Part shown: positions 933-23,332 of the stretch, piece after piece
Layout of the letters: every line of letters starts with the position of its first letter
Numbering within the stretch: position 1 is the first letter of the stretch
DNA from: a virus
DNA length: 29,724 nucleotides
Reading direction: 5' to 3' (one strand)
IMG/VR virus record: IMGVR_UViG_3300029684_000026
Location: 1 to 29,724 of that record
Program-made: the position numbers and the translations under genes
Notes under the pieces: generated by a model
Told to the model about the DNA's origin: nothing
What the model saw: only the letters and a program-made list of their open reading frames with translations
Databases searched by the model: none

Positions 933-3083
933 TTAAGCTGGTCCGTAGGGGTAGAAGGTGCCTCCGAAGACCGGGATCTGGATCATGCCCAGGGCGTATT
1001 GCGTGACCTGGTCTTCGTTGATGTCGGCAACCTGAAAAGCATAGTCAAAGTTGACGCCGGGTTTTTCCTGGGCGAGCATGATCGGGTACACCGTTCCCGG
1101 TATGCCTGACATTTCCGCGCTGGTTAACTTGGCGTCCTGGTCGAAGTGGACATTTATCCAGACCTCCCCGCTGGTCATCGGGAGTTTCACCCAGGAGGAG
1201 CCGGAGCCGCCGTCTCCGGTCGGGTAGAATCCCAAGAGAGAGCCGTTGAGGTAGAGAGCGCCGGGTTTGATGCGAGCATCGGTGATGTTTCCTTCTGTGT
1301 CCTTGGTCAGGCGCACCTGGAAGCCGTATTCCGGCGCAGGAGCTTCAGACCCGGTGGCGGTCGTAATCTGTTGTCCAATGGTCGGAGATTCCGGCTTGGG
1401 GTCGTAGGTCAGGTCAATTGGTTCCGGCGCTCCCTGCATGTTTTCCAACGCGGAAGAGGCATCTGAAATAACATTCACTTCATTAAGCTCAAGTAAATCT
1501 TCGATTCCAAGTTGAGACGGAGAGCCGTAGGAAAGTTCAATAACGTTGGTCTGCAAGTCACGGCTTACGGTCTGCACCATGGTATTGATAGTTTCCCATT
1601 CCGGATTGCCGCCAAGCAAGGAAACACGGCGCCCCATGTATTGCCAGTATTGAGCCCCCCCGCGAGCCGCAAAGGAGATAGACCCGTCATAGGGAAGTTC
1701 CTGCATGGATTCCCACACCGTTCTTGCTATGTCGGCATAAGGTATTCCGTCATTGGGTCCGGTAGAGGGTCCGTCTTCATCGTTTGACGGCTGTTCGCCG
1801 TTATAAATGCCGTCAATCGGATAGGTAGCATTGGGGCGGTCGAGTGTCACCAGGTCCACGGAAAATTCCTGCCAGAAACAAGGCGTGTCTCCTCCTCCAA
1901 TTACTCCGATGTTCTTAAATTTTTCTCTCCACTTGGCCGGGGCATTTTCCGGAATGGCTAGACGCTGCTTGATGGTGGTATTGCACCATTTAGGGCGCAG
2001 GGATTTTGTGTGAATCTGCCCGTCTGTAAGTTCGTATGCGGTTGCCGTGGTGTCGTACCCCTTGGGTTTTTCCTCTTCCGTGCCTTCCCATGCCTTGGGA
2101 GTGACGACCCGGTCGGAATAGGTCACAAGCTGCCCTGCCGGGATGTCTTTCATCCACGGGAAATGGTGTGCCCAAAAGCTGTTGATCATGTCCGCAGCGT
2201 CAATGCGGCGCCCTTTGACAATCATCTTCTGATAAGCCAAGCTGCCGGATCTGGAAGTCTTTACGGGCTGGGGTTCGGAAGCGGAACCGCCTGACTCATT
2301 GTAATTGGAGAAATAAAAGTCAGAGGAGACGCGATAGACGATCGAATGCGGCAGCGTAGGGTCGCCGTCCGACGGGTACTTGGAAAGGTAGGAGACGCGA
2401 TAGCCTGAACTGCCGGTAGATTCTGCCACAATCGCAACACAGGGGGGAACAAGGTCGCCTCGCGGTGACAGTGATACGTCTATGCTTTTGACTGTGGCGG
2501 AGGGTTGCAGCGGCAGGGAAATAGGGTCGAGAGAATCGTAGTCCGTAATGATGAGTTTCGGTTTCTCTCCCGTATAGTCATAATAACTGACCATACGCGG
2601 AGACCAGCGCCGGATGGACTGCAGCAGACTTTGAAGAGTGTCGCAGGATGCATTCCACGGTATCAGCTGCTTGTCGTCTCTGATGCGCAGCTCATAGCTG
2701 GCTGGGTGGTGCTTTGCCATGTCAAGCACGCTGGACAAAGCGCCGCTCAGGTTGACCTTGGGAATAATACCCTCTACGCCTTTACGGGGGAAAAGCCCGA
2801 ACGTCGGCTGCCATCCATTTTCCAAGGCATAGCAATTAGCGAGGTAATACCAGGGGTCGGAAAAAACAATCCTCCAGGACCGCTGGCTGCCGCTGTATAC
2901 TTTTTCAATATTGGACACCAGCCCCACTAGGATGACTTGTCCGTTTTGGGAGATGGTGACGGTATCGAATTGCTTGTACGGCAAAGTTTCCCCAAGCGTC
3001 CTGACGGGGTAAACTGCCGTAATGGTGGACGTGGAGAAGCTCTGTTGATCGTGCGTGAGGCTTGATGGCTTGAGAGCCAGCAA
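933..3083 (-). CDS. Distal tail / host-specificity-like structural protein
   Basis: 716-aa ORF with a TTG start, the last large structural gene downstream of the tape-measure-like gene. Function is inferred mainly from position and size. Confidence 0.5.
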   Translation of the reverse strand: MLALKPSSLTHDQQSFSTSTITAVYPVRTLGETLPYKQFDTVTISQNGQVILVGLVSNIEKVYSGSQRSWRIVFSDPWYYLANCYALENGWQPTFGLFPRKGVEGIIPKVNLSGALSSVLDMAKHHPASYELRIRDDKQLIPWNASCDTLQSLLQSIRRWSPRMVSYYDYTGEKPKLIITDYDSLDPISLPLQPSATVKSIDVSLSPRGDLVPPCVAIVAESTGSSGYRVSYLSKYPSDGDPTLPHSIVYRVSSDFYFSNYNESGGSASEPQPVKTSRSGSLAYQKMIVKGRRIDAADMINSFWAHHFPWMKDIPAGQLVTYSDRVVTPKAWEGTEEEKPKGYDTTATAYELTDGQIHTKSLRPKWCNTTIKQRLAIPENAPAKWREKFKNIGVIGGGDTPCFWQEFSVDLVTLDRPNATYPIDGIYNGEQPSNDEDGPSTGPNDGIPYADIARTVWESMQELPYDGSISFAARGGAQYWQYMGRRVSLLGGNPEWETINTMVQTVSRDLQTNVIELSYGSPSQLGIEDLLELNEVNVISDASSALENMQGAPEPIDLTYDPKPESPTIGQQITTATGSEAPAPEYGFQVRLTKDTEGNITDARIKPGALYLNGSLLGFYPTGDGGSGSSWVKLPMTSGEVWINVHFDQDAKLTSAEMSGIPGTVYPIMLAQEKPGVNFDYAFQVADINEDQVTQYALGMIQIPVFGGTFYPYGPA

Positions 3084-3212
3084 GTCATCTATGGTAATGT
3101 TATGGTTCCTGCTGCTTGAGAATTTGGTTGGTTGTTGACAATATTCTTCTGTCTGTGTTTCAGGCTACTGTTTTTTTTGCTTGTCTTTGACAATCTCTTT
3201 TCCCGGCTTTAT

Positions 3213-3617
3213 TTATTTTTTGGCAAGTAAAATATACAGCGTGTACCAAAGTACAGCCACTACGGCACCTCCCAGAATATAACCCATTCCAATACCAATT
3301 AACCCTGCTTCAAAACTTACAATCCCCATAATGAAGCCCCCTCCTATCGATAGGGTTGCGAGAAATATAAGGACTGTGGAAAGAAAAGAATTACTTTCTT
3401 TGCGATTTGGAAGTTTCTTAGTAGAATAAGTTGTTTTATTGCTTTCCCTTAGTAATTCATCAGCCTTGAACCATTTATTTGTTCCTTCTGCGCAAATTAA
3501 TGTTTCAGGTCCTATGACATGATTTTTAATTAAAATTTGTAGTTGCCTGAATGATATGGGGCCTTTGACAACATTCCCGCAGAAGTAGAAATATTTCATG
3601 GCAACATCATACATCAT
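3213..3617 (-). CDS. GYF_2 (DUF4339)-like domain membrane protein
   Basis: 'KYFYFCGNVVKGPISFRQLQILIKNHVIGPETLICAEGTNKWFKADELL' fits the GYF_2 pattern. The C-terminal ~55 aa are Gly-rich and hydrophobic (about 2 TM helices). The gene is AT-rich. Confidence 0.6.
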   Translation of the reverse strand: MMYDVAMKYFYFCGNVVKGPISFRQLQILIKNHVIGPETLICAEGTNKWFKADELLRESNKTTYSTKKLPNRKESNSFLSTVLIFLATLSIGGGFIMGIVSFEAGLIGIGMGYILGGAVVAVLWYTLYILLAKK

Positions 3618-3629
3618 GATAATTTTTCT

Positions 3630-5480
3630 TCAATGTTTTCTGCGCCGTAATCCTCCAATATTATTTTGAGCTTGTTTTAGCTCTCGAGTTAACTGATCGA
3701 TTCGTGCCTGCTGAACTCTTAATTCTGCCGCTTGTTGATTAACAAGGGAAAGAGCTTGTTTCATATTTGTGGTAAGTCCATTCAGAATTGAGGTGTTTTG
3801 AATTCCTTGCTGCCTCAAAGCATCTCTAAAGGCAACTCCTATTTGTGTATATTCTGCTGAGTCAATTATTCCATCTGCCGAGGCGTTTTTAACCTGATTC
3901 CGAATAGCCTCCGAAGCGGCTCTAACCATCGCTTTCTGTTGCTCACTGGCAGACTCCCCTGCAGCAACAACTAAACGCTCCAGTTCAGCAGAAAAATTAT
4001 CCTTATTCTTCTTCAGAGCATCTTTTTTGGTTTCTATTTCTTTTTTTCTGCCTTCGATTTCATTCTCGGTATCCTCTTTTTCTGTTTCTTCACGGATTTG
4101 CCTTCTCTCCTGAGCTTGAGACGTCCTACCGCGTTGTATATCAACAGCGGCTTCCGAGGCGTTTTTTCTCTTTACATCAGATAGCTTTCGCGTTGCTATT
4201 TCTTCATCATTCTTTGCTGATATTAAAGACTTTTCCGATTCTTCATATTCTTTTTCAAGAGTTTCTACGGTTTCAGCATAAGATTTATAGGCATTCAAAT
4301 AACCTCCATCTCCAAAAGTCATATCACCCAAATTAAAACCTTTATCCTGAAGAGAAATGTCACTTCTCTCTATGTTTCCTTGAATATCAAATATTTTTGC
4401 TCTTCTAGATTCTGCGTCGCTAGGTCGGTATTTATCGAGCAATGCATACACCAATTTATTTGAAATTTCTTCTCCATTTACAAACTCATTAGCTGTATCA
4501 TAAATAGATTTATCACTTACATTCCTATATCGTAAGGCTCCGGAATCTCTTTCTTTATCTCTATACGATTTTAAAGCTCCATATAAATCATTTATTAAAG
4601 ATTTTCTCATTTCACTTAAAGAAACTTCTGACGCCCTTCTTTCTTCAAGAGACATGATATCGTAAGAATTAGATTTTGCATTTTGGAGTGACTCTTGAGC
4701 TTCTCTTGCGGTACGAGCTGCATCAATTCTCTTATTGACTGCGTCGGACACATCTAATTTTGCTGATTCTTCTCTTTCATTTCTCCTTCTTGCGCGGCTA
4801 TCTAATTCGATGCCTTCTAACAAGCGAGCTCTTCGACGCTCAGCCTCGGCGCCTTCACCTAATTTCCCATTAGCAAAATCTTCCTCTACTTTTAGGCGGG
4901 CGATCTCTGCTTCATCGTCATTAATTCCAGATTCTAAAGCAATCAACTCTTTACGATAATCCAAAGAATATTTTAATGCGTTAGCTTCTTCTTTACGATA
5001 ATCAGCTATTTTTTTTGCACTATCTATTGCCGCCCGTAATATTTGTTCATTGTTGTTTTGCCGAGAAATTTCACCAACTTCTTCTTTTAACTTTTTGAAA
5101 GCCTCTCTTTCTTCTTCAAGTTTTTTAGTCAAATCAACTGACTTCTCTTCCGTCGAGGAAAGCCACTCGTAGAGCTTCGCGCCTGCAAGCGTGGCGAGGG
5201 AGAGAGCGCCGGCTAGGCCCGCCCCGCCGCCGAAGCCTATTACAAGGCCCGGAATATTGTTCAGGATGCCCTTGATGCCGTATTGCAGGTCATCGAAGAA
5301 GTAGGCCGCCTGTAAGGTGCCCTTCCCCATGTTCTTGATGCTCTTGGTCGCCTTTTGACTGCCTTTGTCGAGCTGGTCTGTGGATTTATTCAGGGAGTCA
5401 ATCTTCTGCTTTGCTTCTTCTACGCCTTTTCCGTCCAGCGTGGACTTGAGCTTGATTTCGATTTCTTTCTTGGTAGCCAT
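3630..5480 (-). CDS. Tape-measure-like protein (chimeric composition)
   Basis: 616 aa, positioned after a chaperone-position ORF. Contains the Gly-rich hydrophobic stretch 'GLVIGFGGGAGLAGALSLATLAGA', and the remainder is highly charged coiled coil. GC-rich 5' ~320 nt, AT-rich remainder. Confidence 0.55.
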   Translation of the reverse strand: MATKKEIEIKLKSTLDGKGVEEAKQKIDSLNKSTDQLDKGSQKATKSIKNMGKGTLQAAYFFDDLQYGIKGILNNIPGLVIGFGGGAGLAGALSLATLAGAKLYEWLSSTEEKSVDLTKKLEEEREAFKKLKEEVGEISRQNNNEQILRAAIDSAKKIADYRKEEANALKYSLDYRKELIALESGINDDEAEIARLKVEEDFANGKLGEGAEAERRRARLLEGIELDSRARRRNEREESAKLDVSDAVNKRIDAARTAREAQESLQNAKSNSYDIMSLEERRASEVSLSEMRKSLINDLYGALKSYRDKERDSGALRYRNVSDKSIYDTANEFVNGEEISNKLVYALLDKYRPSDAESRRAKIFDIQGNIERSDISLQDKGFNLGDMTFGDGGYLNAYKSYAETVETLEKEYEESEKSLISAKNDEEIATRKLSDVKRKNASEAAVDIQRGRTSQAQERRQIREETEKEDTENEIEGRKKEIETKKDALKKNKDNFSAELERLVVAAGESASEQQKAMVRAASEAIRNQVKNASADGIIDSAEYTQIGVAFRDALRQQGIQNTSILNGLTTNMKQALSLVNQQAAELRVQQARIDQLTRELKQAQNNIGGLRRRKH

Positions 5481-5498
5481 GGTGGAATTGATAAGGGG

Positions 5499-5789
5499 TT
5501 ATCGTTGAGTGTTGACTTCTTCGATGGCGAAAGCAGGAAGTTTCCCGTCCGCGAGGCTGGCGCGGGCGTCGTCCACGCGTTTTTGGAAGTATTCAAGCAT
5601 CATCATATCCCGGAAGATGATGCCGAAGGCTTCGGAGGGGTTGACGCCGGCTTGTCCGGCAGCGGCAAAGACGCTTTCCCGCAAGGCTCGCGTCGCCTGG
5701 TCCAGGGAGGGGTTCTTGAGGCAGGCTTCGGCAAATTCTCCGAAAAGCCGTTCCATGCCGTTTTCAGGTTGAGTGGATTGGTCAGTCAT
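5499..5789 (-). CDS. Small protein in the tail-assembly-chaperone position
   Basis: 96-aa ORF between the tail protein and the tape-measure-like gene. The call is positional only. Confidence 0.3.
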   Translation of the reverse strand: MTDQSTQPENGMERLFGEFAEACLKNPSLDQATRALRESVFAAAGQAGVNPSEAFGIIFRDMMMLEYFQKRVDDARASLADGKLPAFAIEEVNTQR

Positions 5790-7046: not shown

Positions 7047-7583
7047 CTACAGCTTGGAATAGGCCTTCACTCCTTCCGCAATGGCTTCCGCAATGGCTTC
7101 GGGATGGTCCTTCATAAGGGCGGCATTTTCAGGATTGGTGATAAAGCCGCATTCGCACAGCACCCACGGGCAGCGCGTCCTTTTCAGGACGGCCAGCCCC
7201 GGACGGGCCAACACCGTGCAGTCCCGTCCTGGGAGCAGCCGGGCAAGAGGTTCCGCGATGCACATGGCAAGCCGGCTTCCCTTAACGCTCCCGGGATAGA
7301 AGCACACATGGGCGCCGTGAGCTTGCACATTATCCGATGAGTCACAATGCAGGGAAATCCCGAAGTCGTAGCCGCCTTCGTTGGCGGCCTTGATGGTGGC
7401 GTTCAGGTCGTCCGTGTTGCTCTGGGCCGGAAAGTCAATTACGTCCACCTGGGCGCCCAGCTTTCTGAGCATAGGCGCGAGGCGTTCCGTAATCGTCGCT
7501 GCTACGGCGTGTTCTTCAAACCTGTTTCCACGGGCTCCGGTGTTGTTGGCATGGCCTATATCAATGGCTATTTTCCTGGGTAT
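7047..7583 (-). CDS. N-acetylmuramoyl-L-alanine amidase (Amidase_3-type endolysin); start codon uncertain
   Basis: 'KIAIDIGHANNTGA', 'GISLHCDS' and 'VLCECGFITN' match Amidase_3 motifs. The first ATG is at 7472, but the frame is open to 7589 and the metal-ligand His motif lies upstream of that ATG. 7583 is an in-frame ATA. Confidence 0.8.
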   Translation of the reverse strand: MPRKIAIDIGHANNTGARGNRFEEHAVAATITERLAPMLRKLGAQVDVIDFPAQSNTDDLNATIKAANEGGYDFGISLHCDSSDNVQAHGAHVCFYPGSVKGSRLAMCIAEPLARLLPGRDCTVLARPGLAVLKRTRCPWVLCECGFITNPENAALMKDHPEAIAEAIAEGVKAYSKL

Positions 7584-8764: not shown

Positions 8765-10819
8765 TTATTGCGCTAATTGGTTGATTTCTACAACGGCGGC
8801 CTCGGCGTAATGGTGGCCGACAAACGCCCACACCTGCCGCGGTTGTCCAGTCGTGTTTGCCGCCAGCGTCAGGACAACCTGGCCGCCGCCGGACCCTATT
8901 TCTTCAGAGGATTGCGTGCACCACACAGCGGCGGGGTCATGTCCGCACATGGTATCGTTCAGCACATAGATAGCCTCGGAGAGGGTGGAAGACGCCGTCA
9001 ATGTCACCTCGCCGCCAGAGGCCGGAACTTCCTGAGCAGAAGCCGTTACTTCTGGAACTGGTTTAGGTGTCACGCCCTCCATTACCGTGTCCTTCATGAG
9101 GACCCAGGAGTTGGTTATGCCCAGTGAGGGTGCATTGTCTATCCTCATTCCTCCCATCCGGAGGCCCGCCTGATAAGTCCCGCTGACTTCGTGCGCCTTG
9201 AATTTGGTTGTAAGGCATGCTGTGTTGCCGGCGCCCCAAAAGGAGGAAGCCATATCCATTACATATTGCTTGTCCACAAACAAAGCCCAGCGATTGTAAA
9301 TCTCCTGGTCATCGGGGTTGGGTGGCGTCATGGCCGCGGAGACGTAGGTAAAAGCCGGAGCCAATGCCCAAACATAATGGGAATCTACCTTGAGGGGTCC
9401 GTAAAACGTCCCCCTTATCAAGGCCGACTTATTGCTCCCCAGATACCCCATAGGGTAGGTAGTGATCTGATACGCCGGCACATTGTCGCCCCCTCTCGCT
9501 CCATTGACTGTATTGTTTTGCGGATACCTGTAATTTGCATTATCCCAGGCATAATCCACCCAGTGCACAGGATGTGAATAGCAGGACGCCAGCGGATCGA
9601 CAGTCGTAGCGTACCCCTGGGCAGTGCTGCCCAAGAGAACCGACACCTTGTCGGAGCCAAGTATCCGCCAGGCGCAAGCGGCAGCATATTCGTTATTTCT
9701 ATTGTTGCCCATGTAATTGGCAAATTTCCATGATCCCGTGGATTTGCCGATAACAGAAACACCCCCGGCCGCCGTCATGGTTAATACCATATCGCACAAG
9801 TCGTTATTAAATACTCCCTTCTTCAGGGAGGCGTTAGCGGTAGCAATTGCGTAGCTTGTGTTCAACGACTGGGCTTCCACCAAGGCGGTCACCCATGACG
9901 GAATGACGGATTCCAGAAAATAGTTGGTGCGGCTCCATTGGCCGGCAGCCGTCATGGTTATCATTCCCTCATAGGAAATGGCATTCTGCCCTGTGGCGGG
10001 CAGCGGCACACGGACTCCTTCGATTGCGGTGATCGTGGCGTCGTAGGTCTGCGGCTGCGTCCAGTTATAAGACCCGTCCGGATTAACATCCCCGGTATCT
10101 CCTTTCTCGCCACGGGGTCCTTGGGGACCCTCCGGCCCCTCGGGGCCTTGCGGGCCGGCAGGACCCTGCGGTCCGGTTTCTCCAATGTCGCCTCTTGGTC
10201 CCTGTTCTCCGGTCGCTCCCTGAGGACCTTGAGGTCCTGCGTCGCCCCTGGGACCCTGAGGGCCTTCGGGGCCGGTTTCGCCCGGTTCCCCCTGCGGGCC
10301 TGGTGGGCCTTCGGGACCGGCGTCTCCTTTGGGGATGGTAAACGACAACAGATAAGAGCCCGCTTCCGAGCCTTTCACGGCTTCCGCTGCGGCAGGAGTG
10401 CCAGGCTCGCCGGTAGTGACCCGGTCCACCGAAAGATTGAAATTCTCGGCGTACTTCTTGGCCTGCTCCGCGTACCAGGCGGCGCTTGACGCATTATCAA
10501 GCACCACCTGCACGCAGCCGCTTCCTTCCGGCAGCTGCACGACGACCGCGCCCGCCACGGCCTGCTGTTCGTCCGGCAAGTCAGGCGTTACACGGCCCGC
10601 AGAAACAAAGCATCCGTAGAGCAGCGGTCTTTCCTCGTTTCCGTCGTCCATGAAGACGTCGTAGGACCACCTGCCCGCAGGCACCGAAGCCCAGGAAAGC
10701 ACGCCGTTACCCTCATCGTCGCGGGAAAAGCCGAACTCGGCGACGCCTGTCTTGAGACGGACAGCGCCGCGGAGGGTGACGCCGCTCATGTCGACGGGAT
10801 CCCCCTGAAAATCTACCAC
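8765..10819 (-). CDS. Collagen-repeat tail fibre with a C-terminal BACON/Ig-like domain
   Basis: 684 aa with a GTG start. Carries about 26 uninterrupted G-X-Y triplets (aa 165-243). The C-terminal ~97 aa ('[12 protein letters not shown]...[24 protein letters not shown]...VVEINQ') fit the BACON pattern. Confidence 0.75.
10091..10327 (-). repeat. Collagen-like G-X-Y coding repeat
   Basis: [79 protein letters not shown]. Confidence 0.95.
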
Positions 10820-10902
10820 ACGGACGACCAGCGACTGGTTCAGCCCCGTGACGGTCCGGATATCGTATTTGCCTGCCTGCTGCCTGGGAAAAAAGAGGAT
10901 GC

Positions 10903-10921
10903 GGGGGCGCAGCGCGCCCCC
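10903..10921 (-). terminator. GC hairpin, possible intra-operon terminator or attenuator
   Basis: GGGGGCGC-AGC-GCGCCCCC forms a perfect 8-bp stem. On the minus strand a T6 run follows after an 8-nt spacer, so it is not a textbook terminator. Confidence 0.4.
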
Positions 10922-10933
10922 TGGTGAAACGCG

Positions 10934-11491
10934 TCAGGAACCCGGCGCCGGCGTCACGTCCTGCACATTGGAGGGCGTGAACTGGTACTTGCCGCGATAA
11001 TCCATTTCGAACTCGAACTGGGGTGAAGCAATCGCCGTGGTGTGTTCGGGATCCTGCAGGAGGCGCAAGGCGCCATGCGCCGTTCCGACCAGATAGATAG
11101 TACCCACGTCGTTCTGATACCAGAAGTGAAGATACCCCTCAATCTTATTGTCGCCGCCATGTCCGACGGTGGTCGATTCCTCGCCGTTGGCGGGAGGCGC
11201 TCCCAAGGCGAAAGAAAGCTGGAACCATTCGGGGGACATGTCCGGCGTGGTGAAGGTCATCCGCTTGCCGGTCGTGGTGTTCTTGCGCTGCTGGCGATAT
11301 CCCAGCGCACCGCCGTAAAAGCGCGTCACTTCCCCTTCGACCTGGGTGGCGACGGACTGGAACGCTCCCAGCAGCCCGAAGCTCACCCAGGGCTGTTCAG
11401 GCCCGGCGGTCGGATCCGTTGGCGGAGACGTCGGAGGCGTCGGAAACTGGTCCGGCCCGGTGACGTAAGAAGCTCCCTCGTCTTCGGTCAC
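10934..11491 (-). CDS. Hypothetical virion protein (start uncertain)
   Basis: 185-aa ORF from a GTG start. The same frame stays open upstream to 11635 with plausible coding sequence. Confidence 0.5.
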   Translation of the reverse strand: MTEDEGASYVTGPDQFPTPPTSPPTDPTAGPEQPWVSFGLLGAFQSVATQVEGEVTRFYGGALGYRQQRKNTTTGKRMTFTTPDMSPEWFQLSFALGAPPANGEESTTVGHGGDNKIEGYLHFWYQNDVGTIYLVGTAHGALRLLQDPEHTTAIASPQFEFEMDYRGKYQFTPSNVQDVTPAPGS

Positions 11492-11598
11492 CTTGATGCC
11501 GTCGGGGAGGAAAATAGCCAGAACGCCGGTAATCTGCGGCGTGACGTTGCGGTTCGTGAATGTGGGATCGTATGTAGTTGCCCTGGTGCTTGAAACGG

Positions 11599-14779: not shown

Positions 14780-15664
14780 TTAATCGCCGGTGGCCGTCGC
14801 GTCGATGCGGACGATGGCGCTGGGGTTCGTCAACTTGGTCAGCGAGTAGACGCGGTTGGTGACGAGCGTCAAGGCCGGCGTCGGCTTGTATTCAGTGATG
14901 ACTTCGCGGCGAAGCTTGCCGGAAAGCCCGAAGGTTTTGACGGCGGAGGCGTCGAACTGCGTCGGGGAGTCTTCCTTGTACAGGACGTAGACTTCGTTTT
15001 CCATGATGGTTTTCGCGTCGCCGGAAGCGTCGCGGTACGGCATGGAGGCGATGTAAATATCCCGGATGGGCCGGATCAGAGCCATGCGAAGCAGGTCTTC
15101 ATTGAACAGGCCGACGCTGTTGAAGGAAACCACCTGACGCGCCAGCGGATTGGACCTAAGTAGCTGCCATGCGTTGACGCCGAAGACAATCGTGGTCGGG
15201 AAGTGTCCGGTTGCGGCGTTGATGGACAGGATTGCCTTGTCCAGCTGATCCAACGGGTTTTTCTGCGGGTTGGCCCAGTCGCCCATCCCGGAAGCGGCCG
15301 GAAGCTGGCTCATCAGAAGCTTGGCGCGTTCGTATTCGTACGACGTCACAAACTGGGATTCGATGAGTTTGTATTCCGCCAGGGTGATGGCCTGCGCCTT
15401 TTCCCGGTTGACGCCCAGCAAGGCGTCAGGGATGGGCAGCGTCAAGCCGTAGCCCTGAAGGGTGTCGGTTTCGTTTCTGCCGCGCAGGACGGTCTGGCGG
15501 GGAGGTTCGCCCGGTCCCACCTGGATGGGCTGGACGGTGAAGGCCGATTCCGTGTCCCAGACCTTGTACTGGAAATTCAGGTCATAGACCGGGACGATCG
15601 GAGCGATGCGGCTGATGATGGAGTTCTCTTCGGTGTTCCCGGACCCCGCGGAATAGGAGGTCAG
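14780..15664 (-). CDS. Major capsid protein (HK97-fold, lambda gpE / Mu gpT-like); start uncertain
   Basis: Follows the protease/scaffold and decoration genes. The first canonical start is GTG at 15520, but the frame is open to 15727 and encodes protein-like sequence ('IISRIAPIVPVYDLNFQYKVWDTESAF'). 15664 is an in-frame CTG. Confidence 0.7.
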   Translation of the reverse strand: MTSYSAGSGNTEENSIISRIAPIVPVYDLNFQYKVWDTESAFTVQPIQVGPGEPPRQTVLRGRNETDTLQGYGLTLPIPDALLGVNREKAQAITLAEYKLIESQFVTSYEYERAKLLMSQLPAASGMGDWANPQKNPLDQLDKAILSINAATGHFPTTIVFGVNAWQLLRSNPLARQVVSFNSVGLFNEDLLRMALIRPIRDIYIASMPYRDASGDAKTIMENEVYVLYKEDSPTQFDASAVKTFGLSGKLRREVITEYKPTPALTLVTNRVYSLTKLTNPSAIVRIDATATGD

Positions 15665-15740
15665 GACATCGGTGAACTGAACGGCGGAGCAAAATGGAGT
15701 AGCCCTTGTTCTTGGTCTTTCTGTTGGTTAGGGTTAATAG

Positions 15741-16193: not shown

Positions 16194-17306
16194 TTAACGT
16201 TGGGCGGAGACGATGAAGCCCTCTTCGGTCGCCTTCTGGTAGGCGTCATAGCGCTTCATGCCGTCCTTGATGAGTTCGTTCACGCGGTTGTTGAATCCGT
16301 CAATGGATTCCTTCTTGCGGAATGGGTCAGGGGGATTCAGCGTCGCGCGGCGGTTCAGAGGCGTCCTTTTCGGCAGTTCCTTCTTTTCCTCCTGATCCGG
16401 TTTTTTGGGCGGAGTCTGGCGGTTGAGCGCACGGATAAAAGCGTTCAGCGCGGCGGGGCTTTCCCGGAGAGAGTTTTTCAGCTCTTCCCGGCGTTCTTCC
16501 GTGAATTCCTCGCGTTCTTCCTCGTCCAGCGCGTTTTCGTACGTGCTGACGGCGTCGTCCACTTCGGCGTTCACGTGGTCTTTCTCACGCTTTTCCAGCG
16601 AGAGCAGTTCATCAAGGCGTCCGAGGATCGCCCTGCTCATGTCGTCGGTGCCGTCAAATTCGACATCCAGCTTGTCAAGCAGGGAGTCGAACAGGGCCCG
16701 CTGGGCCTTGTCCATCTCCTTGGACGGATATTCTCTATCGTCGTTTTCCATATTGGTTTTCTGGGTTGTTTCCCCCTCTTCGGGGCTTTTGGGGTCGCCC
16801 CCGGCCTCGTCGGAGGCGGGGGAAGTCTGTCGGTTGACCAGAGGCCGCTTTCCCTTGATGCGCGGCCGGTTGGTCAGAGCGAAGCCGGTCAGACGCGACG
16901 GGCGGTAGACGCCGTCCGTCAAAGTCATGCCTTCGCCATATTCGGTGGATGATTGCGTGTATTCCTTGTCCTGCAGCATCTTCAGGCCGCGCGGCGTCCA
17001 TTCGATGAACCCGTAGAGTTCCAGCGTGCCGGAAGGGTCGCGGTAGGTGTCCAGCCTCTTGAGCCATCCGAGGGCCCGAGTATCGCGGGAAAGGTCGTGG
17101 CTCAGGTGGTCGCCGTCGATGAGCATGCCCGGGCCGTCAAAGGTGCGGGCGTTGAAGTCGTCCACCATGTCCCGGATCGCCTGCTCGTCGATGCGCAACA
17201 CGGCGGGACCCTCGCCGTAGTCAACGTCATGGTCTCCGCTTTTCTCAACGTGGAACCAGCCGTTGGCGGGTCGGGACAGGTCATTGATTTGTTTCGTGCT
17301 GATCAT
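16194..17306 (-). CDS. Mu gpI-like prohead protease / scaffold
   Basis: 'MLIDGDHLSH...ALGWLKRL...LELYGFIEWTPRGLKMLQDKEYTQSSTEY' parallels the Mu-like_Pro pattern (iDyeH..AaGWi..Lwa.veWT...eyry.SP). The C-terminal half is charged and scaffold-like. Confidence 0.65.
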   Translation of the reverse strand: MISTKQINDLSRPANGWFHVEKSGDHDVDYGEGPAVLRIDEQAIRDMVDDFNARTFDGPGMLIDGDHLSHDLSRDTRALGWLKRLDTYRDPSGTLELYGFIEWTPRGLKMLQDKEYTQSSTEYGEGMTLTDGVYRPSRLTGFALTNRPRIKGKRPLVNRQTSPASDEAGGDPKSPEEGETTQKTNMENDDREYPSKEMDKAQRALFDSLLDKLDVEFDGTDDMSRAILGRLDELLSLEKREKDHVNAEVDDAVSTYENALDEEEREEFTEERREELKNSLRESPAALNAFIRALNRQTPPKKPDQEEKKELPKRTPLNRRATLNPPDPFRKKESIDGFNNRVNELIKDGMKRYDAYQKATEEGFIVSAQR

Positions 17307-18729
17307 CGGTAAATCCTTTCATGAGTCCGGCGTAAATCATTTGCTGAAGCTGTTCATAAGCATCGGGCGGAATGAGTGCTTTTTCCGGTTCCCTGTTGGC
17401 CGCCGCCGTCACCGGAACGGGGTCCTGCGTGTCCTCGATCGACATGCCGATCTTTTCTTCAATCTCGGTCTTCTCGGGGCGGACGCCTCCGTCGGCAAGC
17501 GCGGCGATTTCCTCGGCTTTCTGCAGCGGGGTCTGGACGGTGTCAAAAGTGATGTGGAGGCGGGCCAGCGGTTCGCCGTCTCCCAGGACAAGCGGGCTGA
17601 TGGCGGCGTTAAAAGCTTCGGCGACCTTGGAACAGACCGCGGAGACGACCGAATTCCAGCTGTCCGTGTGCGCTCCCCCGGCCAGCGTGCCGGATCCTGA
17701 TTCATTCAGGACGGTCAGAGTGCCGGCCATTACAAACCGCACCTGGTCCTTGTCGGACATGTTGATTCGGGATAGGAAATAGTTTTCGTTGATGTTGGAG
17801 GCTTTCAACGGTTCGGCGGTGCAGCCGGGAGGAAGCACAATGGAGGCTCCCGATTTGAGTTCCTCACAGGCCCGTTCCAGCGCGTCCATGACGGCGGCGC
17901 TCGCGTCCTTGGGCGCCGTGATGATGACCGGGGCGCTCCCGTAGCGGTCCATATGGTTGTCCCACGTAACTTTGGCGTGATTCCGCTCAAAAGAGGCGCG
18001 GGTTGCCGGAAAAAGAATGGGGTTCCGGTGCTCCATGACCACGAGCGTTTCTTCCTCTACGCTCTCGCCCGTGTCGACCCCGATGTAGCACTGGGGATTA
18101 AACTGCCATTCGTTCAGCTCTCCGGGCCGCACCCAGTATCGCTGCGGGATGAATTCAAAGCGGCGGCCCCAGGAATCTTCGATGTATTGGAGGTGGGCGT
18201 ACCCGTAAAACATAGCGGAGGCCAACTGCCCAAAGGCCTGTTGAAGTCCGGTGACGGAGTGATAGAATTCTTCCAGCGCGTTCTGCTGACGCTGGGCTTC
18301 CGGGCTGTCGTCCGCGGCGTCAATCTTCCATCCCTGCATGGAGACGCTTTCAATGAGCCGGGAATAGAGCATGCCCATCAAGCCGTCCGAGTAGATGACC
18401 TCGTCCCAAATGAGCATTTGGCGGGCAAAGGCTCCACGCCGCGCTTCGTTCCGGGCGTCAATCAGGGTTTGCAGGTCGGCGCCCTGTAACGGGTCCCAAT
18501 ATTCGTACCATTGAGGCTGGTTAGGCTTCCGGCTCTGTTCCGTCAACGCTCGCCGGGCCAGGTCCGTTTCAAGCTCCTTGATTCTGGTCTCCTGTTGGGC
18601 TACCAGCTTCGGGGCGTTGAGGATATTTTTGACGGCGTTAAACCTGAGGCTAAAGAAAAGGTGGTTGCAGGGGAAGGAGTTGGACCTTCGATTCGGGGAC
18701 AGGAACCCCGCGTGATACCGTTTCACCAC
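17281..18729 (-). CDS. Portal protein (possibly Mu gp29 / DUF935-type)
   Basis: 482-aa ORF between TerL and the protease/scaffold. Only a GTG start is available, and the first ~30 aa look non-native. Confidence 0.6.
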   Translation of the reverse strand: MVKRYHAGFLSPNRRSNSFPCNHLFFSLRFNAVKNILNAPKLVAQQETRIKELETDLARRALTEQSRKPNQPQWYEYWDPLQGADLQTLIDARNEARRGAFARQMLIWDEVIYSDGLMGMLYSRLIESVSMQGWKIDAADDSPEAQRQQNALEEFYHSVTGLQQAFGQLASAMFYGYAHLQYIEDSWGRRFEFIPQRYWVRPGELNEWQFNPQCYIGVDTGESVEEETLVVMEHRNPILFPATRASFERNHAKVTWDNHMDRYGSAPVIITAPKDASAAVMDALERACEELKSGASIVLPPGCTAEPLKASNINENYFLSRINMSDKDQVRFVMAGTLTVLNESGSGTLAGGAHTDSWNSVVSAVCSKVAEAFNAAISPLVLGDGEPLARLHITFDTVQTPLQKAEEIAALADGGVRPEKTEIEEKIGMSIEDTQDPVPVTAAANREPEKALIPPDAYEQLQQMIYAGLMKGFTDDQHETNQ

Positions 18730-18782
18730 CCTGCGATTGCTTACATATCGTCATATATTGATATCTTAATATGTTGTCAACC

Positions 18783-20120
18783 CTAATATCTCCCGTAAGC
18801 GCGTTTTGATGACACGGGACGGGCGTACCAGGCTCCCAGCGTCCGCGCCAGTCCGCTGTTCCGGCGCGCGTGCCAGGCCATCACAAGGGCGTCGGCCCGG
18901 TCTGGGGAACGAACGCCCCGCTTTGCCATATCTTCTTTGCTTTCAATGCGGACGCGGCCTATTGCGTCGGTTTGGAGTCGTGGAGCAACCAGCTGCTCAA
19001 TCGTATCCTCGTCAATGTCGAGGATGAGTTCTTTTTCTTCGATGGCGCGGGCGAGAGCCCGCCATGCTTGGGCGCGGAGGTTGACAAAGGCTTGTGTGTC
19101 ATCTGCCGGGAAGCCTCCCCGGTAGGAGTGCACGGGGAAACCCTCAGCCCGGAAGTCGTCAATGATGGGAAGCCCCAGTCCGTCGCCGTCGGCAAAGATG
19201 CGGTCGGCAGAGATGCCGAGTTCGGCGGCCTTTCGGCGGAAACGTCCGCGCGCTCCTACAGTGTCTGGGTCGGCCCAGTGGTCGGCGATGAAAAAACGGT
19301 TGCCCTGTCCGGCCGCGAAGACATTCTCATCACCCCCGGCGGCGAAGTCAAAGCCGCCGCAGGTCTCCCCGGTGTCCAAAAAGGGAGGCGGGTTGTTGAG
19401 CAGCTCCATGATGGCGCGGCGGGAAATGACGGATTGCCCGTCAAGGTCCGTGAATTCGCCGAGGATGGCCGAGCGGTAGAAGGAGGACTGTTCGCCGTAT
19501 TCTTTTTTCAGGCGTTCGGCCTTGCCTGGATCGTTGATTTCGATGTGCGGGCAATCCTCGTATTTAACGCGGATTTTGTAGTAGAGGGATGAATTTTTGT
19601 GGAAGCAGTCGTAAAAGGTTCCGGAATCGGCACCCGGCGACGAGGTGATGAACGCGTTGAAGAGCGTGCAGCGGGAAACAGCGGTGAAGATGGAGTCGGG
19701 AATGGTCTTGGCTTCGTCCAGGACGTAAAAGACGGGATCCACGTCGGGCGAGATTTTCGGATGCCACCCTTCTGCGCGTCCCGCGTTGTCGGTTGAGAAT
19801 CCCACGGCAAATCCTCCTTCCGGCGTGCGGATTTCGGTTTTGTTGAATGTCCAGCCGTCAAAGAAAGGGTTATCCATATAGCGGCGAAGCGCGGGAAAGA
19901 GCTGTTTTTCTACCTGCATCCATGATGATGACGTGACTGGCACCTGACCCCGAGGAAAATAGGTAAGGAAACACAGGATTGCGGGCGCAATGGATAGGCT
20001 CGTCTTTCCCGATCCGTTCGGAGCAACCATGGCCACGCTTCGACCTCCCAGCCTCACCTTTCCAAGAAGCAATGCCTTGATGGCCTCGATTTGCCAGGGA
20101 TAAGGATCGAGTCCGAGAAT
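18783..20120 (-). CDS. terL: Terminase large subunit; start uncertain
   Basis: Walker A 'APNGSGKT' and Walker B 'VFYVLDEA'. The first canonical start is TTG at 20072, but 'ILGLDPYPWQIEAIKA' lies upstream in the same frame. 20120 is an in-frame ATT. Confidence 0.85.
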   Translation of the reverse strand: MLGLDPYPWQIEAIKALLLGKVRLGGRSVAMVAPNGSGKTSLSIAPAILCFLTYFPRGQVPVTSSSWMQVEKQLFPALRRYMDNPFFDGWTFNKTEIRTPEGGFAVGFSTDNAGRAEGWHPKISPDVDPVFYVLDEAKTIPDSIFTAVSRCTLFNAFITSSPGADSGTFYDCFHKNSSLYYKIRVKYEDCPHIEINDPGKAERLKKEYGEQSSFYRSAILGEFTDLDGQSVISRRAIMELLNNPPPFLDTGETCGGFDFAAGGDENVFAAGQGNRFFIADHWADPDTVGARGRFRRKAAELGISADRIFADGDGLGLPIIDDFRAEGFPVHSYRGGFPADDTQAFVNLRAQAWRALARAIEEKELILDIDEDTIEQLVAPRLQTDAIGRVRIESKEDMAKRGVRSPDRADALVMAWHARRNSGLARTLGAWYARPVSSKRAYGRY

Positions 20121-20162
20121 GTGACGGAGGAAGAAGCTGACGGGGAGATGGTTCCTGCTCGA

Positions 20163-20642
20163 TTAAGGGTGGAGTTTGCCGGCAATGGTTTCCAGCGCGG
20201 TTTTCTCGTCTTCCCGGAGCTGGGCAAGCTGCTCGGGGTCCAGGGTGATTTTGCGTTCCAATGGAGCGCCGGGAACGCCCGCTACATCCTGCCGGACTCG
20301 GTCGCCGAATTTCTCGGGGGCAAAACGGGCGGCAACTTTCAGCCGCGTTTCAATGGCGAGCTTCTTGGCAGCGACGGAGGCGGATCCGCATTCGGGGTCG
20401 AGGGCAACCTGGGCAGCGGCATCTGACAAAGACTGACACTCGTCGAGCATGGCTTCTGACTGCGCTTCCCGCGCGCGTTGAATGAGTTTACAAAACTCTT
20501 CCCGTTCGTGCCTCCATCTCCAGACAGTTAAAACCTCCGGCATGTGATCGTCCGAGCAAATGGACTTCATCGTTTCCCCGTTGGCTAAACGGGAGGCTAT
20601 CTCGTCGGCTAATGCCTCCGTATAGAGGCTGGGCCGTCCTAT
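20163..20642 (-). CDS. terS: Terminase small subunit; start uncertain
   Basis: 'GRPSLYTEALADEIASRLANGETMKSICSDDHMPEVLTVWRW...EF...ARE.Q' matches a common TerS N-terminal HTH pattern. The first ATG is at 20570, inside that pattern. 20642 is an in-frame ATA. Confidence 0.7.
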   Translation of the reverse strand: MGRPSLYTEALADEIASRLANGETMKSICSDDHMPEVLTVWRWRHEREEFCKLIQRAREAQSEAMLDECQSLSDAAAQVALDPECGSASVAAKKLAIETRLKVAARFAPEKFGDRVRQDVAGVPGAPLERKITLDPEQLAQLREDEKTALETIAGKLHP

Positions 20643-20748
20643 TTTCTTGTTGGCGGTAGGTGATTGCTTCTTTTTCCTGCAGGTCTACTCTAGAGGACAA
20701 GTAGCTAGCAAATCAAGCACTCTGTTTGTTCATTCCTTTCTGGGCCCA

Positions 20749-21333: not shown

Positions 21334-21503
21334 AAGGGAATGAGCGTTTCCGCTCGTGCTGATCTTGTGATCGTTTTAATCCACAGCCCCGGAGGGCTGA
21401 CGTGTTCCTAGAAAGAACAAATTACTTCTCTCATATTCTGCGCCAGGCCGCAAGCAAAAACGGAATGACAACTTTTTTCACCTTTTTTCATTTTTTCTCT
21501 TGC

Positions 21504-21526
21504 GTTACTATAAATTTTATAGTAAC
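21504..21526. promoter_or_regulatory. Perfect 23-bp palindrome, operator-like
   Basis: GTTACTATAAA-T-TTTATAGTAAC, with 11-bp arms verified base by base. Lies 75 nt upstream of the ATG at 21601. Confidence 0.6.
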
Positions 21527-21600
21527 TTAATTTTGTTGACGGGAGGTAAGGGACCGAACGAAGACATAATCCAAATAACAAAACTAGAAAGAACAAGACA

Positions 21601-21924
21601 ATGAACGATAACAAAATCATCACCACGGAAGACGGAGAAGAAATCAACCTGACCGCTCTTGAACGTGAATTTGGCAGCTACAAGTTTGAAGGCAAGACCT
21701 ACTATGCAGCGCGCCAGATGGAATACACCAACAGGGTTTTCCCTGGCTCCTATGCGGACAAATACGAAGACGGCAGCTACATGGAAGAATGGTCTGCTCC
21801 CGGCTATGATGCAGAAGGGAACAAGGTTGAAATCTTCATGGTCTTTGAACAAATGACGGGCGAAGAAATTGAAGGAGAAAACCTCAACTGGACGCAGGAC
21901 GCTTCCCGCGTTGAAGCTCACTAA
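21601..21924 (+). CDS. Small highly acidic protein
   Basis: 107 aa with an ATG start. Hand count gives 24 D/E versus 9 K/R. Confidence 0.6.
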   Translation: MNDNKIITTEDGEEINLTALEREFGSYKFEGKTYYAARQMEYTNRVFPGSYADKYEDGSYMEEWSAPGYDAEGNKVEIFMVFEQMTGEEIEGENLNWTQDASRVEAH

Positions 21925-21933
21925 ATAACCCCC

Positions 21934-21954
21934 AGGGGCGGCAAAGCCGCCCCT
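21934..21954 (+). terminator. GC-rich hairpin (terminator or attenuator)
   Basis: AGGGGCGGC-AAA-GCCGCCCCT forms a 9-bp stem and is followed by CCTTTCTC. It ends 11 nt before the ATG at 21966. Confidence 0.5.
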
Positions 21955-21965
21955 CCTTTCTCACT

Positions 21966-23270
21966 ATGACCGCACAAGAATTTATCGACTGGCTTCAAAC
22001 TGCCAACAATCTTCCAAATCCTACCCAAGCTGTAAAAAGGGCCGCGCAGATGATGCGGGTGACGGAAGATGCTGTTTGGAAGTGGCTAAATACTAAAAAA
22101 CCACATCCCACGCCTGAATACATGCAATTGCTCATGGAGTTATTGCATGAAAAATACCGAGAAAAGAGGTTTCACCGCATTCTTTCTCACGAACAGCGTG
22201 AAGAAATGCGGTCCATGTTGGGCAAAAAACCTGATCTGGAAATCGCCGAGCTACTCGGAATAGCGCGCGTCACGGTCCAGACTGAACGCTATAAATTAGG
22301 TATCAAAAAGTATTGCAGCCCTGAAGCAATCCGCATCCAACACGATGAAGAGCTTATTGCAGTGCTCGGAAAAATTCCTGACTCGGAGTGTGCCAAGAAG
22401 TTTGGATACTCAAATTCCAGAGTAGCCTACCTTAGAAAGAAATTAGGGATTAAGTCATATAGGGGGCCGCGTAAACCCCGTCAGCCACGAGACCCAAATA
22501 AACCACACAAGAAAAAAGAGTATCCCGAAGAGTTAATTAACATGCTTGGAAAGACCCCGGATGATGAAATTGCTAAAAAATTCGGTTATTCCAAGGCAGG
22601 AATTGCGCTTATTAGAAAAAAGATGGGCATTCCATCATTATCTGATACTAAATTCCCCGAAGAGAAACGCGAAGAAATGCTATCCATGCTTGGGAAAGTT
22701 CCTGATAGCGAAATTGCTGAAAGGCTTGGAATATCGCTTAATGTTGTAGCGCGGAACCGTAGAAAATTAAAAATTGCTCCAGCTCCATACTCTCCCATTA
22801 AGGATGCGGACAAGGATATAATTCTTAATTTATTGGGAAGAGTATCAGATTTAAAAATTGCAAAAAAAACAGGGTACAGCGTATATGTAATTAAAAAATT
22901 TAGAGAACAGAACAAAATTAAGCCTTTCAGTAAAAGCATTTTAGAAAGATTTTCACCGGACCAACGTAAAAAACTCTTATCTATGCTTGGGAAAGTTTAT
23001 GATAGAGTAATAGCCGAAAAATTTAATATTGATGACGAGGCAGTAAGAAGAATTAGACAGAAATTGAATGTTCCGGCATTACGTGAGGAAAAAAGCTTGC
23101 AAGAAACAATAGAAGGGGACGAATACATTAAATCCCTGCTGGGCACAATGACTGATAAAGAAGTCGCTAATAAAACAGGCAAATCAATACAAGTTATCGG
23201 AAAAGCAAGGAGAAAATTAAATATCCCGGCGTTTGATACAAGGGGGCGGTCTACAAAGAAACAATCTTGA
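21966..23270 (+). CDS. Protein with seven tandem HTH modules (sigma70 region 4 / GcrA-like) plus an N-terminal HTH-like segment
   Basis: 434 aa, AT-rich. Carries seven copies of the pattern L(L)GKxPDxEIAxKFGxSxxxVxxxRRKLxI(P), listed in the findings. Confidence 0.65.
   Translation: MTAQEFIDWLQTANNLPNPTQAVKRAAQMMRVTEDAVWKWLNTKKPHPTPEYMQLLMELLHEKYREKRFHRILSHEQREEMRSMLGKKPDLEIAELLGIARVTVQTERYKLGIKKYCSPEAIRIQHDEELIAVLGKIPDSECAKKFGYSNSRVAYLRKKLGIKSYRGPRKPRQPRDPNKPHKKKEYPEELINMLGKTPDDEIAKKFGYSKAGIALIRKKMGIPSLSDTKFPEEKREEMLSMLGKVPDSEIAERLGISLNVVARNRRKLKIAPAPYSPIKDADKDIILNLLGRVSDLKIAKKTGYSVYVIKKFREQNKIKPFSKSILERFSPDQRKKLLSMLGKVYDRVIAEKFNIDDEAVRRIRQKLNVPALREEKSLQETIEGDEYIKSLLGTMTDKEVANKTGKSIQVIGKARRKLNIPAFDTRGRSTKKQS
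22191..23225 (+). repeat. Intragenic array of seven ~40-aa HTH repeat units
   Basis: The repeats are also visible at nucleotide level, for example atgcttgggaaagtt at about 22684 and about 22981. Confidence 0.8.
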
Positions 23271-23296
23271 TCTTTCCAAGATAAAAACGCGCCCCC

Positions 23297-23332
23297 TATA
23301 CGAGATTCCAGGGGGTATACGAGATTCCAGGG
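23297..23332. repeat. Tandem 17-bp direct repeat TATACGAGATTCCAGGG x2 (2-bp spacer)
   Basis: Copies at 23297-23313 and 23316-23332 are identical. They lie in the convergent gap between the plus-strand island and the DnaC-like gene. Confidence 0.9.

Follow-up and report, generated by a model that had tools for sequence, protein, structure and literature searches.

A candidate private start codon: AGG and an initiator-like tRNA(CCU) in the late genes of a Mu-like Akkermansia phage

The terS locus of an Akkermansia phage

The stretch of DNA analysed here (the window) is the complete IMG/VR virus record IMGVR_UViG_3300029684_000026, 29,724 bp in length with a CheckV completeness of 89%, and the gene under study is its small terminase gene, terS, whose conserved N-terminus has no canonical start codon. 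The window is a Mu-like temperate phage of Akkermansia. The closest proteins carried Akkermansia names, and a metagenome-assembled genome (MAG) of A. muciniphila holds a prophage 93% identical to the window phage. The late genes are on the minus strand, as are all features described below unless marked otherwise, and include terS (PF20901), terL (phrog_2), a tRNA gene, a Mu-type portal gene (PF06074), the gene of the major head protein, tail genes, an Amidase_3 endolysin gene and others. The early genes (23.3–29.7 kb) and most of the other late genes have canonical starts (ATG, GTG or TTG). The proposed extent of terS, which encodes an Sf6 gp1-like small terminase, is 20163–20678, that is, 171 codons from an AGG at 20678–20676 to the TAA stop at 20165–20163.

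The frame of the first ATG (20570–20568; Met39 of the stop-to-stop open reading frame (ORF)) was open back to an in-frame TAG at 20687–20685 and encoded TCRKKKQSPTANKKIGRPSLYTEALADEIASRLANGET before the first Met, as stated in a preliminary description made from the window sequence. We were able to reproduce its other observations on these 117 nt: ATG, GTG and TTG were absent from every frame, CTG was absent from the terS frame (the sole CTG there was out of frame), and an ATA was located at 20642–20640, directly before GRPSLY. A start-free stretch of this length was mildly unusual, being found in 4.6% of shuffles and in 1.6% of the 117-nt segments on the same strand. The unusual point is the coding nature of the stretch and not the mere lack of starts.

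The terS frame gave a PF20901 (Sf6_terminase) match of 100.9 bits (cut-off 27), covering profile positions 1–105 of 106, and a phrog_1482 match of 7.6e-33. The PF20901 alignment began, at profile position 1, with residue 21 of the stop-to-stop ORF, which lies 18 residues ahead of the first ATG. Among 27 distinct relatives, the segment GRPSLY..GET varied at 22 of the 23 third codon positions, at 12 first positions and at 5 of the 23 second positions. On this pattern of change, the N-terminus of terS is judged to be under coding (purifying) selection. The Pfam match and the coding signature upstream of the first ATG bear out the earlier view that the typical TerS N-terminal helix-turn-helix (HTH) must be translated.

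Were translation to begin at the ATG of 20570–20568, the product would be a TerS of 135 residues that lacks the segment GRPSLYTEALADEIASR and the first helix of its DNA-binding domain. This ATG is the only canonical start, has a GGGGA stretch 5 nt upstream, and was the start chosen by gene callers (P0004, P0006 and P0008 were called from MKSIC..., and P0004 and P0006 are large protein clusters). However, the upstream 38 codons carried a strong coding signature, matched Pfam positions 1–18 and contained the invariant GRPSLY. The bases of the putative Shine-Dalgarno sequence also varied synonymously (GGA, GGG, GGT or GGC). A start at this ATG is highly improbable.

A scan of viral contigs (IMG/VR) gave 37 related terS loci, and about 40 loci were available overall. 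The relatives had CheckV completeness values of 94–100%, and eleven fuller relatives were compared for late-gene starts, alongside a stop-to-stop ORF analysis of the window. The relatives are closely akin, so the number of loci does not give the number of independent events. Independence can be claimed for the ATG/AGG exchanges at three sites, for the four lengths of the arm, for the promoter contexts of unrelated sequence and for the compensatory changes in the tRNA, all described below. A canonical in-frame start upstream of GRPSLY was missing in most of the 37 related loci. The upstream stops differed among relatives (TAG, TAA plus TAG, TGA plus TAG, TGA or TAA) and lay at varied distances in several unrelated upstream sequences. 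The comparison across loci indicates that the start-less terS is a family trait and not a lesion. Sequencing or assembly error was rejected as the cause, because the start-less feature recurred in about 40 independent assemblies. Single-base frameshifts giving chimeric C- or N-termini were seen in locus L008 and in proteins P0009, P0011 and P0014; these have the appearance of assembly errors, with no bearing on the start question.

Two of the explanations put forward in the preliminary description depended on the TAG. Under these, terS would be amber-inactivated in a defective prophage, or would need suppression or readthrough of the TAG from GTG 20720 or TTG 20711, making the prophage suppressor-dependent. 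A single in-frame TAG does separate the conserved N-terminus from the upstream GTG and TTG. However, purifying selection was evident, the relatives were nearly or fully complete by CheckV, and the start-less state was common to about 40 loci with a strong coding signature; the stops varied in kind and place, the upstream sequences were unrelated and non-coding, and the stops fell in the predicted -10 box (see below). Since the start-less terS is a family trait with varied stops, amber inactivation and TAG readthrough were ruled out, and we give them next to no credence. Reassignment of TAG was rejected as well, as reading TAG as Gln gave no systematic gene extension or merging in the window and no suppressor tRNA was found there. 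The best explanation of the comparative data is that terS is an intact, expressed gene.

The AGG codon upstream of GRPSLY

Homology among the relatives began at the AGG of 20678–20676, which lies in frame in the invariant motif (C)GCAGGAAAAAG. The sequence (C)GCAGGAAAAAGAA was common to all relatives, and upstream of the motif divergence was complete. The AGG was invariant and in frame with GRPSLY across 16 distinct arm sequences with lengths of 33, 36, 39 and 42 nt, and the A-rich arm between AGG and GRPSLY never held an in-frame stop. The arm encodes a basic peptide, KKKQSPTANKK in the window and most commonly RKKKPTTKRKP among relatives. Distant TerS homologues of other bacteria (37–42% identity), which have ATG or GTG starts, carried a basic arm of about 13–17 residues, such as MTRKKPAPKKTKK-GRPSLYTEAL, and in several of them the ATG or GTG was located within one or two residues of the AGG position. 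An alignment of TerS homologues, suggested in the preliminary description as a check, was run; the homologues do not begin at Met39. That description had overlooked both the in-frame AGG and the initiator-like tRNA(CCU) 1.9 kb downstream.

If terS started at the ATA of 20642–20640 through weak reading of that codon by the host initiator tRNA, the AGG would lie with the basic arm in an A-rich untranslated leader. The ATA aligned exactly with the ATG of L039 (KK-M-GRPSLY) and L040, and the ATA start was chosen in the NCBI annotation of the relative P0002 (MKRPPGRPS). However, CCG takes the place of this ATA in most relatives, and ATA therefore cannot account for the family; initiation at ATA, put forward in the preliminary description, is left as a minor rival in the window only. 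Most relatives were without any ATN or NTG codon between the upstream stop and GRPSLY, the arm length was always a multiple of three and the arm stop-free in frame though A-rich, and the equivalent arm is translated in distant homologues. No Shine-Dalgarno sequence was found before the ATA, and seven other genes described below would be left unexplained. An ATA start for terS is unlikely. The search for a conserved near-cognate start (ATA, ATT, ATC or CTG) gave none, and the commonest arm, RKKKPTTKRKP, has no such codon.

The invariant motif could also point to a change of frame at CAG-GAA-AAA-G, by a programmed +1 frameshift or by slippage in transcription, so that ribosomes starting out of frame at TTG 20700 would enter the terS frame. 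The motif AGGAAAAAG was invariant at the nucleotide level, a TTG or ATG lay a few codons upstream in the other frame in the window and some relatives, and in L006 the other frame ended in TAA right at the motif. However, when all three frames were tabulated for 28 distinct upstream sequences, no alternative frame had a start in every lineage, and in the L007, L009, L031 and L033 types the motif was immediately preceded by a stop, or neither of the alternative frames had a start. The run of five A is short for slippage, and the other genes would be left unexplained. Frameshifting or slippage at AGGAAAAAG was rejected and carries very little credence.

A late promoter was predicted directly upstream of the AGG, with a sigma-70-like -10 box TAGAGT (20687–20692) 8 nt before the AGG and a -35 box TTGATT (20711–20716) separated from it by an 18-nt spacer. 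The prediction comes from a loose scan across relatives with several unrelated upstream sequence types. A -35 box TTGAnn or TTGACn, a spacer of 17–18 nt and a -10 box TAnnnT ending 6–9 nt before the AGG could be fitted in 21 of 22 distinct upstream contexts; in the remaining context, L040, the -10 box alone fitted. The in-frame stops of all lineages fell within or just after the -10 box, and in the window the TAG of 20687–20685 overlaps the last base of that box. When the usual distance of about 7 nt from the -10 box was assumed, the transcript start was predicted at about 20681–20678, which would make the terS message leaderless or near-leaderless. The in-frame TAG probably belongs to the promoter and not to the message.

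The phage tRNA(CCU) and the proposed AGG starts of the late genes

The only tRNA gene detected in the window by ARAGORN and Rfam was located between terL and the portal gene (18662–18735; RF00005, 52.7 bits). The tRNA has the anticodon CCU, which reads AGG, and an encoded CCA; its sequence is CGCAGGGUGGUGAAACGGUAUCACGCGGGGUUCCUGUCCCCGAAUCGAAGGUCCAACUCCUUCCCCUGCAACCA. ARAGORN labelled it as tRNA-Arg. It has a C1xA72 mismatch, G2:C71, C3:G70 and the discriminator A73, and the 1:72 position was flagged as non-canonical in the RF00005 alignment (cmscan). Three G:C pairs (G29–31:C39–41) lie beside the anticodon loop, with CGGGG/CCCCG in the window, and some variants have A29:U41, as in the host's own tRNAfMet, or U31-G39. 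Among 16 distinct variants, 20 of 20 stem pairs were always paired and the 1:72 position (C and A) was paired in 0%. Compensatory double changes were found in 9 stem pairs among these variants, which was reached by 0 of 500 shuffles. The phage tRNA was classed as initiator-like and not as tRNAfMet because its anticodon is CCU and not CAU. The second G of the D-loop GG varied in single loci.

In the host MAG, C1xA72 was found in tRNAfMet alone. The host tRNA-Arg(CCU) has G1:C72, A20 and A37, and its sequence is unrelated to that of the phage tRNA(CCU). GGAUA (A20) and a paired 1:72 position are common to the four tRNA-Arg of the host, whereas the phage tRNA has C1xA72, U20 and G37. Raw identity to host tRNAs was rejected as a classifier because it was not discriminating, long class II tRNAs scoring high; the 1:72 feature did discriminate.

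The tRNA(CCU) gene followed terL in every related locus extending past terL, with the anticodon CCU in every copy, and it co-occurred with AGG starts in all relatives examined. It was found in 1 of the 101 genomes of the host genus searched (one genome per species). In a distant Akkermansia relative (L046) without the tRNA, terS, terL, the endolysin gene and the portal gene all start with ATG.

The lack of a canonical start was not restricted to terS. In eight late genes the conserved N-terminus preceded the first canonical start, and a conserved AGG was located at the expected start; the stop-to-stop ORFs and the relatives showed such an AGG in terL, the capsid gene and the endolysin gene, where the preliminary description had suspected the same problem. 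The start AGG was kept in 67 of 67 cases where the alignment reached the first residue, and was never replaced by a synonymous Arg codon. For internal AGG codons, 29 of 101 aligned codons stayed AGG. AGG and ATG were exchanged at the same codon at three sites, in the endolysin, the capsid (G011) and terL (L039).

The terL gene (large terminase; 18783–20156, phrog_2) would start at AGG 20156–20154, two codons after the terS stop. The first TTG of terL is located downstream of a conserved PWQ stretch at the N-terminus, which closely precedes the Walker A box. The C-AGG of terL was invariant while the neighbouring codons varied freely; L039 has ATG at that codon, and G011 has ATG at the next one downstream. 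At the terS–terL junction, the two genes are in different frames in G002 and G006 (L005, L035) and in the same frame in the window, with the TAA and two codons between them. Despite the differing terS frames, the AGG keeps the frame of terL, which counts against a TerS–TerL readthrough fusion. The portal gene (Mu gp29-like; 17281–18645, PF06074) has its AGG at 18645–18643, 17 nt after the tRNA, in an invariant CAGG-TTY-AAC that follows a variable spacer. The AGG of the major head protein gene (14780–15706, phrog_1005) is located at 15706–15704, and G011 has ATG at the identical codon.

Four more late genes carried a conserved AGG. In the endolysin gene (Amidase_3; 7047–7577), with AGG at 7577–7575, PF01520 position 1 aligned at residue 2, right after the AGG, and a Shine-Dalgarno sequence AAGGAG was found at about 7590–7585, 7 nt before the AGG. 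The endolysin start was polymorphic after AAAGGAGAATAC(T/C)C, being ATG in G002, G004, G005, G009 and G010 and AGG in the window, G003, G006 and G008, with an identical Shine-Dalgarno sequence; this polymorphism would offer a natural allelic series for a reporter test. The collagen-repeat tail fibre gene (8765–10885; PF01391 and tail-fibre PHROGs) has its AGG at 10885–10883. A GC-rich hairpin with a T-run, resembling a terminator, lies directly upstream of this AGG (10886–10930), and the length of the T-run differed among relatives. Because this varying length shifts the upstream frame, coding of the tail fibre starts at the AGG. A gene of unknown function with 216 codons (10934–11584; AGG 11584–11582) kept the AGG in 11 of 11 relatives. 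For another, with 725 codons (933–3110; AGG 3110–3108), the upstream genes differed among relatives, whose homology set in about 20 nt ahead of the AGG. PHROG searches gave no names for these two AGG-start genes, nor for eight canonically started late genes.

The base at position -1 of the AGG was C at 7 of the 8 window starts and A at the capsid gene. G37 of the window tRNA may pair with C(-1) as a fourth base pair. A37:U(-1) pairing has been reported for E. coli (PMC10018350). No covariation was found between tRNA position 37 and the -1 base, as the A37-variant phages (G007 and G009) keep C at -1.

The phage tRNA might instead be merely an elongator for a rare Arg codon, the AGG start being read by the host tRNAfMet as a near-cognate. 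The anticodon CCU, the tRNA-Arg label given by ARAGORN and the lack of A11:U24 would fit such a role. However, C1xA72 was conserved in all 16 variants, a mismatch that disfavours EF-Tu binding, and the host already has a normal tRNA-Arg(CCU). There would be little for an elongator tRNA to supply, because internal AGG is rare (13 in about 3,100 late-gene codons). Initiation is very poor when CAU is mismatched at the middle position, which speaks against the reading of AGG by the host tRNAfMet. This explanation is quite improbable.

We consider it quite probable that terS begins at AGG 20678–20676 by initiation with the phage tRNA. It is also rather likely that AGG acts as a private start codon, with the phage initiator tRNA(CCU) starting terS, from a leaderless message, and seven other essential late genes at AGG, so that virion and lysis proteins would be produced efficiently only when the phage tRNA is present. 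Such a tRNA would descend from a bacterial initiator tRNA, or share its build, with the anticodon CCU in place of CAU, and its pairing with AGG in the ribosomal P site would start translation. The AGG starts would be used by eight late genes, namely terS, terL, portal, major head protein, collagen-like tail fibre, amidase endolysin and the two genes of unknown function. The late mRNA would begin at the terS AGG or 1–3 nt before it, and late-gene translation would be tied to expression of the phage tRNA. We infer the action of the tRNA in initiation, the transcript start and the coupling of the late genes to tRNA expression from these comparisons.

Several points weigh against a private AGG start. 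The whole case comes from sequence comparison. In-frame ATGs were found further upstream in two lineages (types E and H), the ATA that immediately precedes GRPSLY in the window is replaced by ATG in L039 and L040, and the basic arm might be an A-rich leader in some lineages. U11:A24 was present in all 16 tRNA variants, and not the A11:U24 of E. coli-type initiators; the T-loop of the phage tRNA, UCCAAYU with C at position 55, is unusual, and its position 37 is G. ArgRS is suited by C35 and U36, MetRS needs CAU, and formyltransferase deals poorly with basic amino acids. The phage tRNA is without the A20 present in all four host tRNA-Arg and without CAU for MetRS. The promoter and the transcription start are predictions, and a consensus promoter scan with a 9-of-12 threshold gave no match in the window, where the promoter scores 8 of 12.

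Other observations were made near the tRNA gene and the late promoter. Positions 18736–18782, between the terL stop and the tRNA, contain a conserved TTGACA followed by an AT-rich palindromic sequence, which may be the tRNA's own promoter, an operator or a processing site. A CRISPR array with the repeat GTTTCAATCCACGCACTCGTGAGAGTGCGAC was found in the A. muciniphila host MAG (G001, contig C11, at about 88.4 kb; L057:1500-1535), and one host CRISPR spacer was identical to positions 8–42 of the phage tRNA(CCU); the host therefore targets the tRNA gene itself. L040–L043 belong to a different small element with an integrase, an ATG-start TerS (P0012), a pRha-domain gene and the same tRNA(CCU) (L040:2594-2667), which may be satellite-like or another phage type bringing the tRNA along. 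Two low-GC inserts (37–49%) were found at 21400–23300 (plus strand) and 3200–5500 (minus strand) in a phage that otherwise has 55–63% GC. The first of these separates the early genes from the late promoter and encodes a 434-residue protein with about ten HTH-like repeats (LGK.PD.EIA..G.S...V...R.KLGI).

Comparison with known systems

The window TerS is an ordinary member of the Sf6 gp1-type small terminases (PF20901), with the N-terminal HTH and GRPSLYTEALA after a basic arm, and its gene differs in the start codon only. Bacterial tRNAfMet, including phage-borne copies, shares with the phage tRNA C1xA72, G2:C71, C3:G70, A73 and the G:C pairs at the base of the anticodon stem. In contrast, tRNAfMet has the anticodon CAU, A11:U24 and A37 where the phage tRNA has CCU, U11:A24 and G37, and the T-loop UCCAAYU is that of the phage. 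The elongator tRNA-Arg(CCU) is matched by the phage tRNA in the anticodon CCU, but not in the paired 1:72, A20 and A37.

Near-cognate starts (AUU, AUA, CUG and others) used with the normal initiator tRNA resemble the present case in that translation proceeds although the gene lacks ATG, GTG and TTG. Here, however, the conserved codon is AGG, for which there is a dedicated tRNA with a perfectly matching anticodon. In phages with suppressor tRNAs, stop codons of late structural and lysis genes are recoded, which may gate late translation (Borges et al., bioRxiv 10.1101/2021.08.26.457843). In both cases a phage-encoded tRNA would alter codon reading in late, structural and lysis genes, but in stop-codon recoding in-gene stops are read as amino acids during elongation, whereas in the window phage a sense codon would be used for initiation.

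Full-text literature searches returned stop-codon recoding and engineered systems, but gave no natural example of an initiator tRNA whose anticodon differs from CAU. Engineered orthogonal E. coli initiator tRNAs, such as the amber initiator and i-tRNA-AAC, are anticodon mutants of tRNAfMet for which, as far as the reports describe them, the complementary non-AUG codon becomes a start that is usable as a private expression channel (bioRxiv 10.1101/2021.05.25.445580, 10.1101/524249; Nucleic Acids Res 2025, gkaf003). As presented there these are laboratory constructs, whereas the phage system would be natural, evolutionarily maintained and coupled to essential late genes.

Gene callers would shorten or miss AGG-start genes, and hundreds of TerS database entries begin at Met39 (460 sequences in P0006 alone). 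If a private AGG start is correct, it would be a natural, virus-borne exception to the rule that bacterial translation starts only via the CAU initiator tRNA, and would point to tRNA-dependent initiation as a new means of gating late genes. It would also make testable how far initiator identity (formylation, IF2/IF3 proofreading) tolerates a changed anticodon and which amino acid would then come first in the protein, and would offer synthetic biology a naturally evolved orthogonal pair of initiator and start codon. The phage system would then be the natural counterpart of engineered orthogonal initiation and the start-codon analogue of phage stop-codon recoding.

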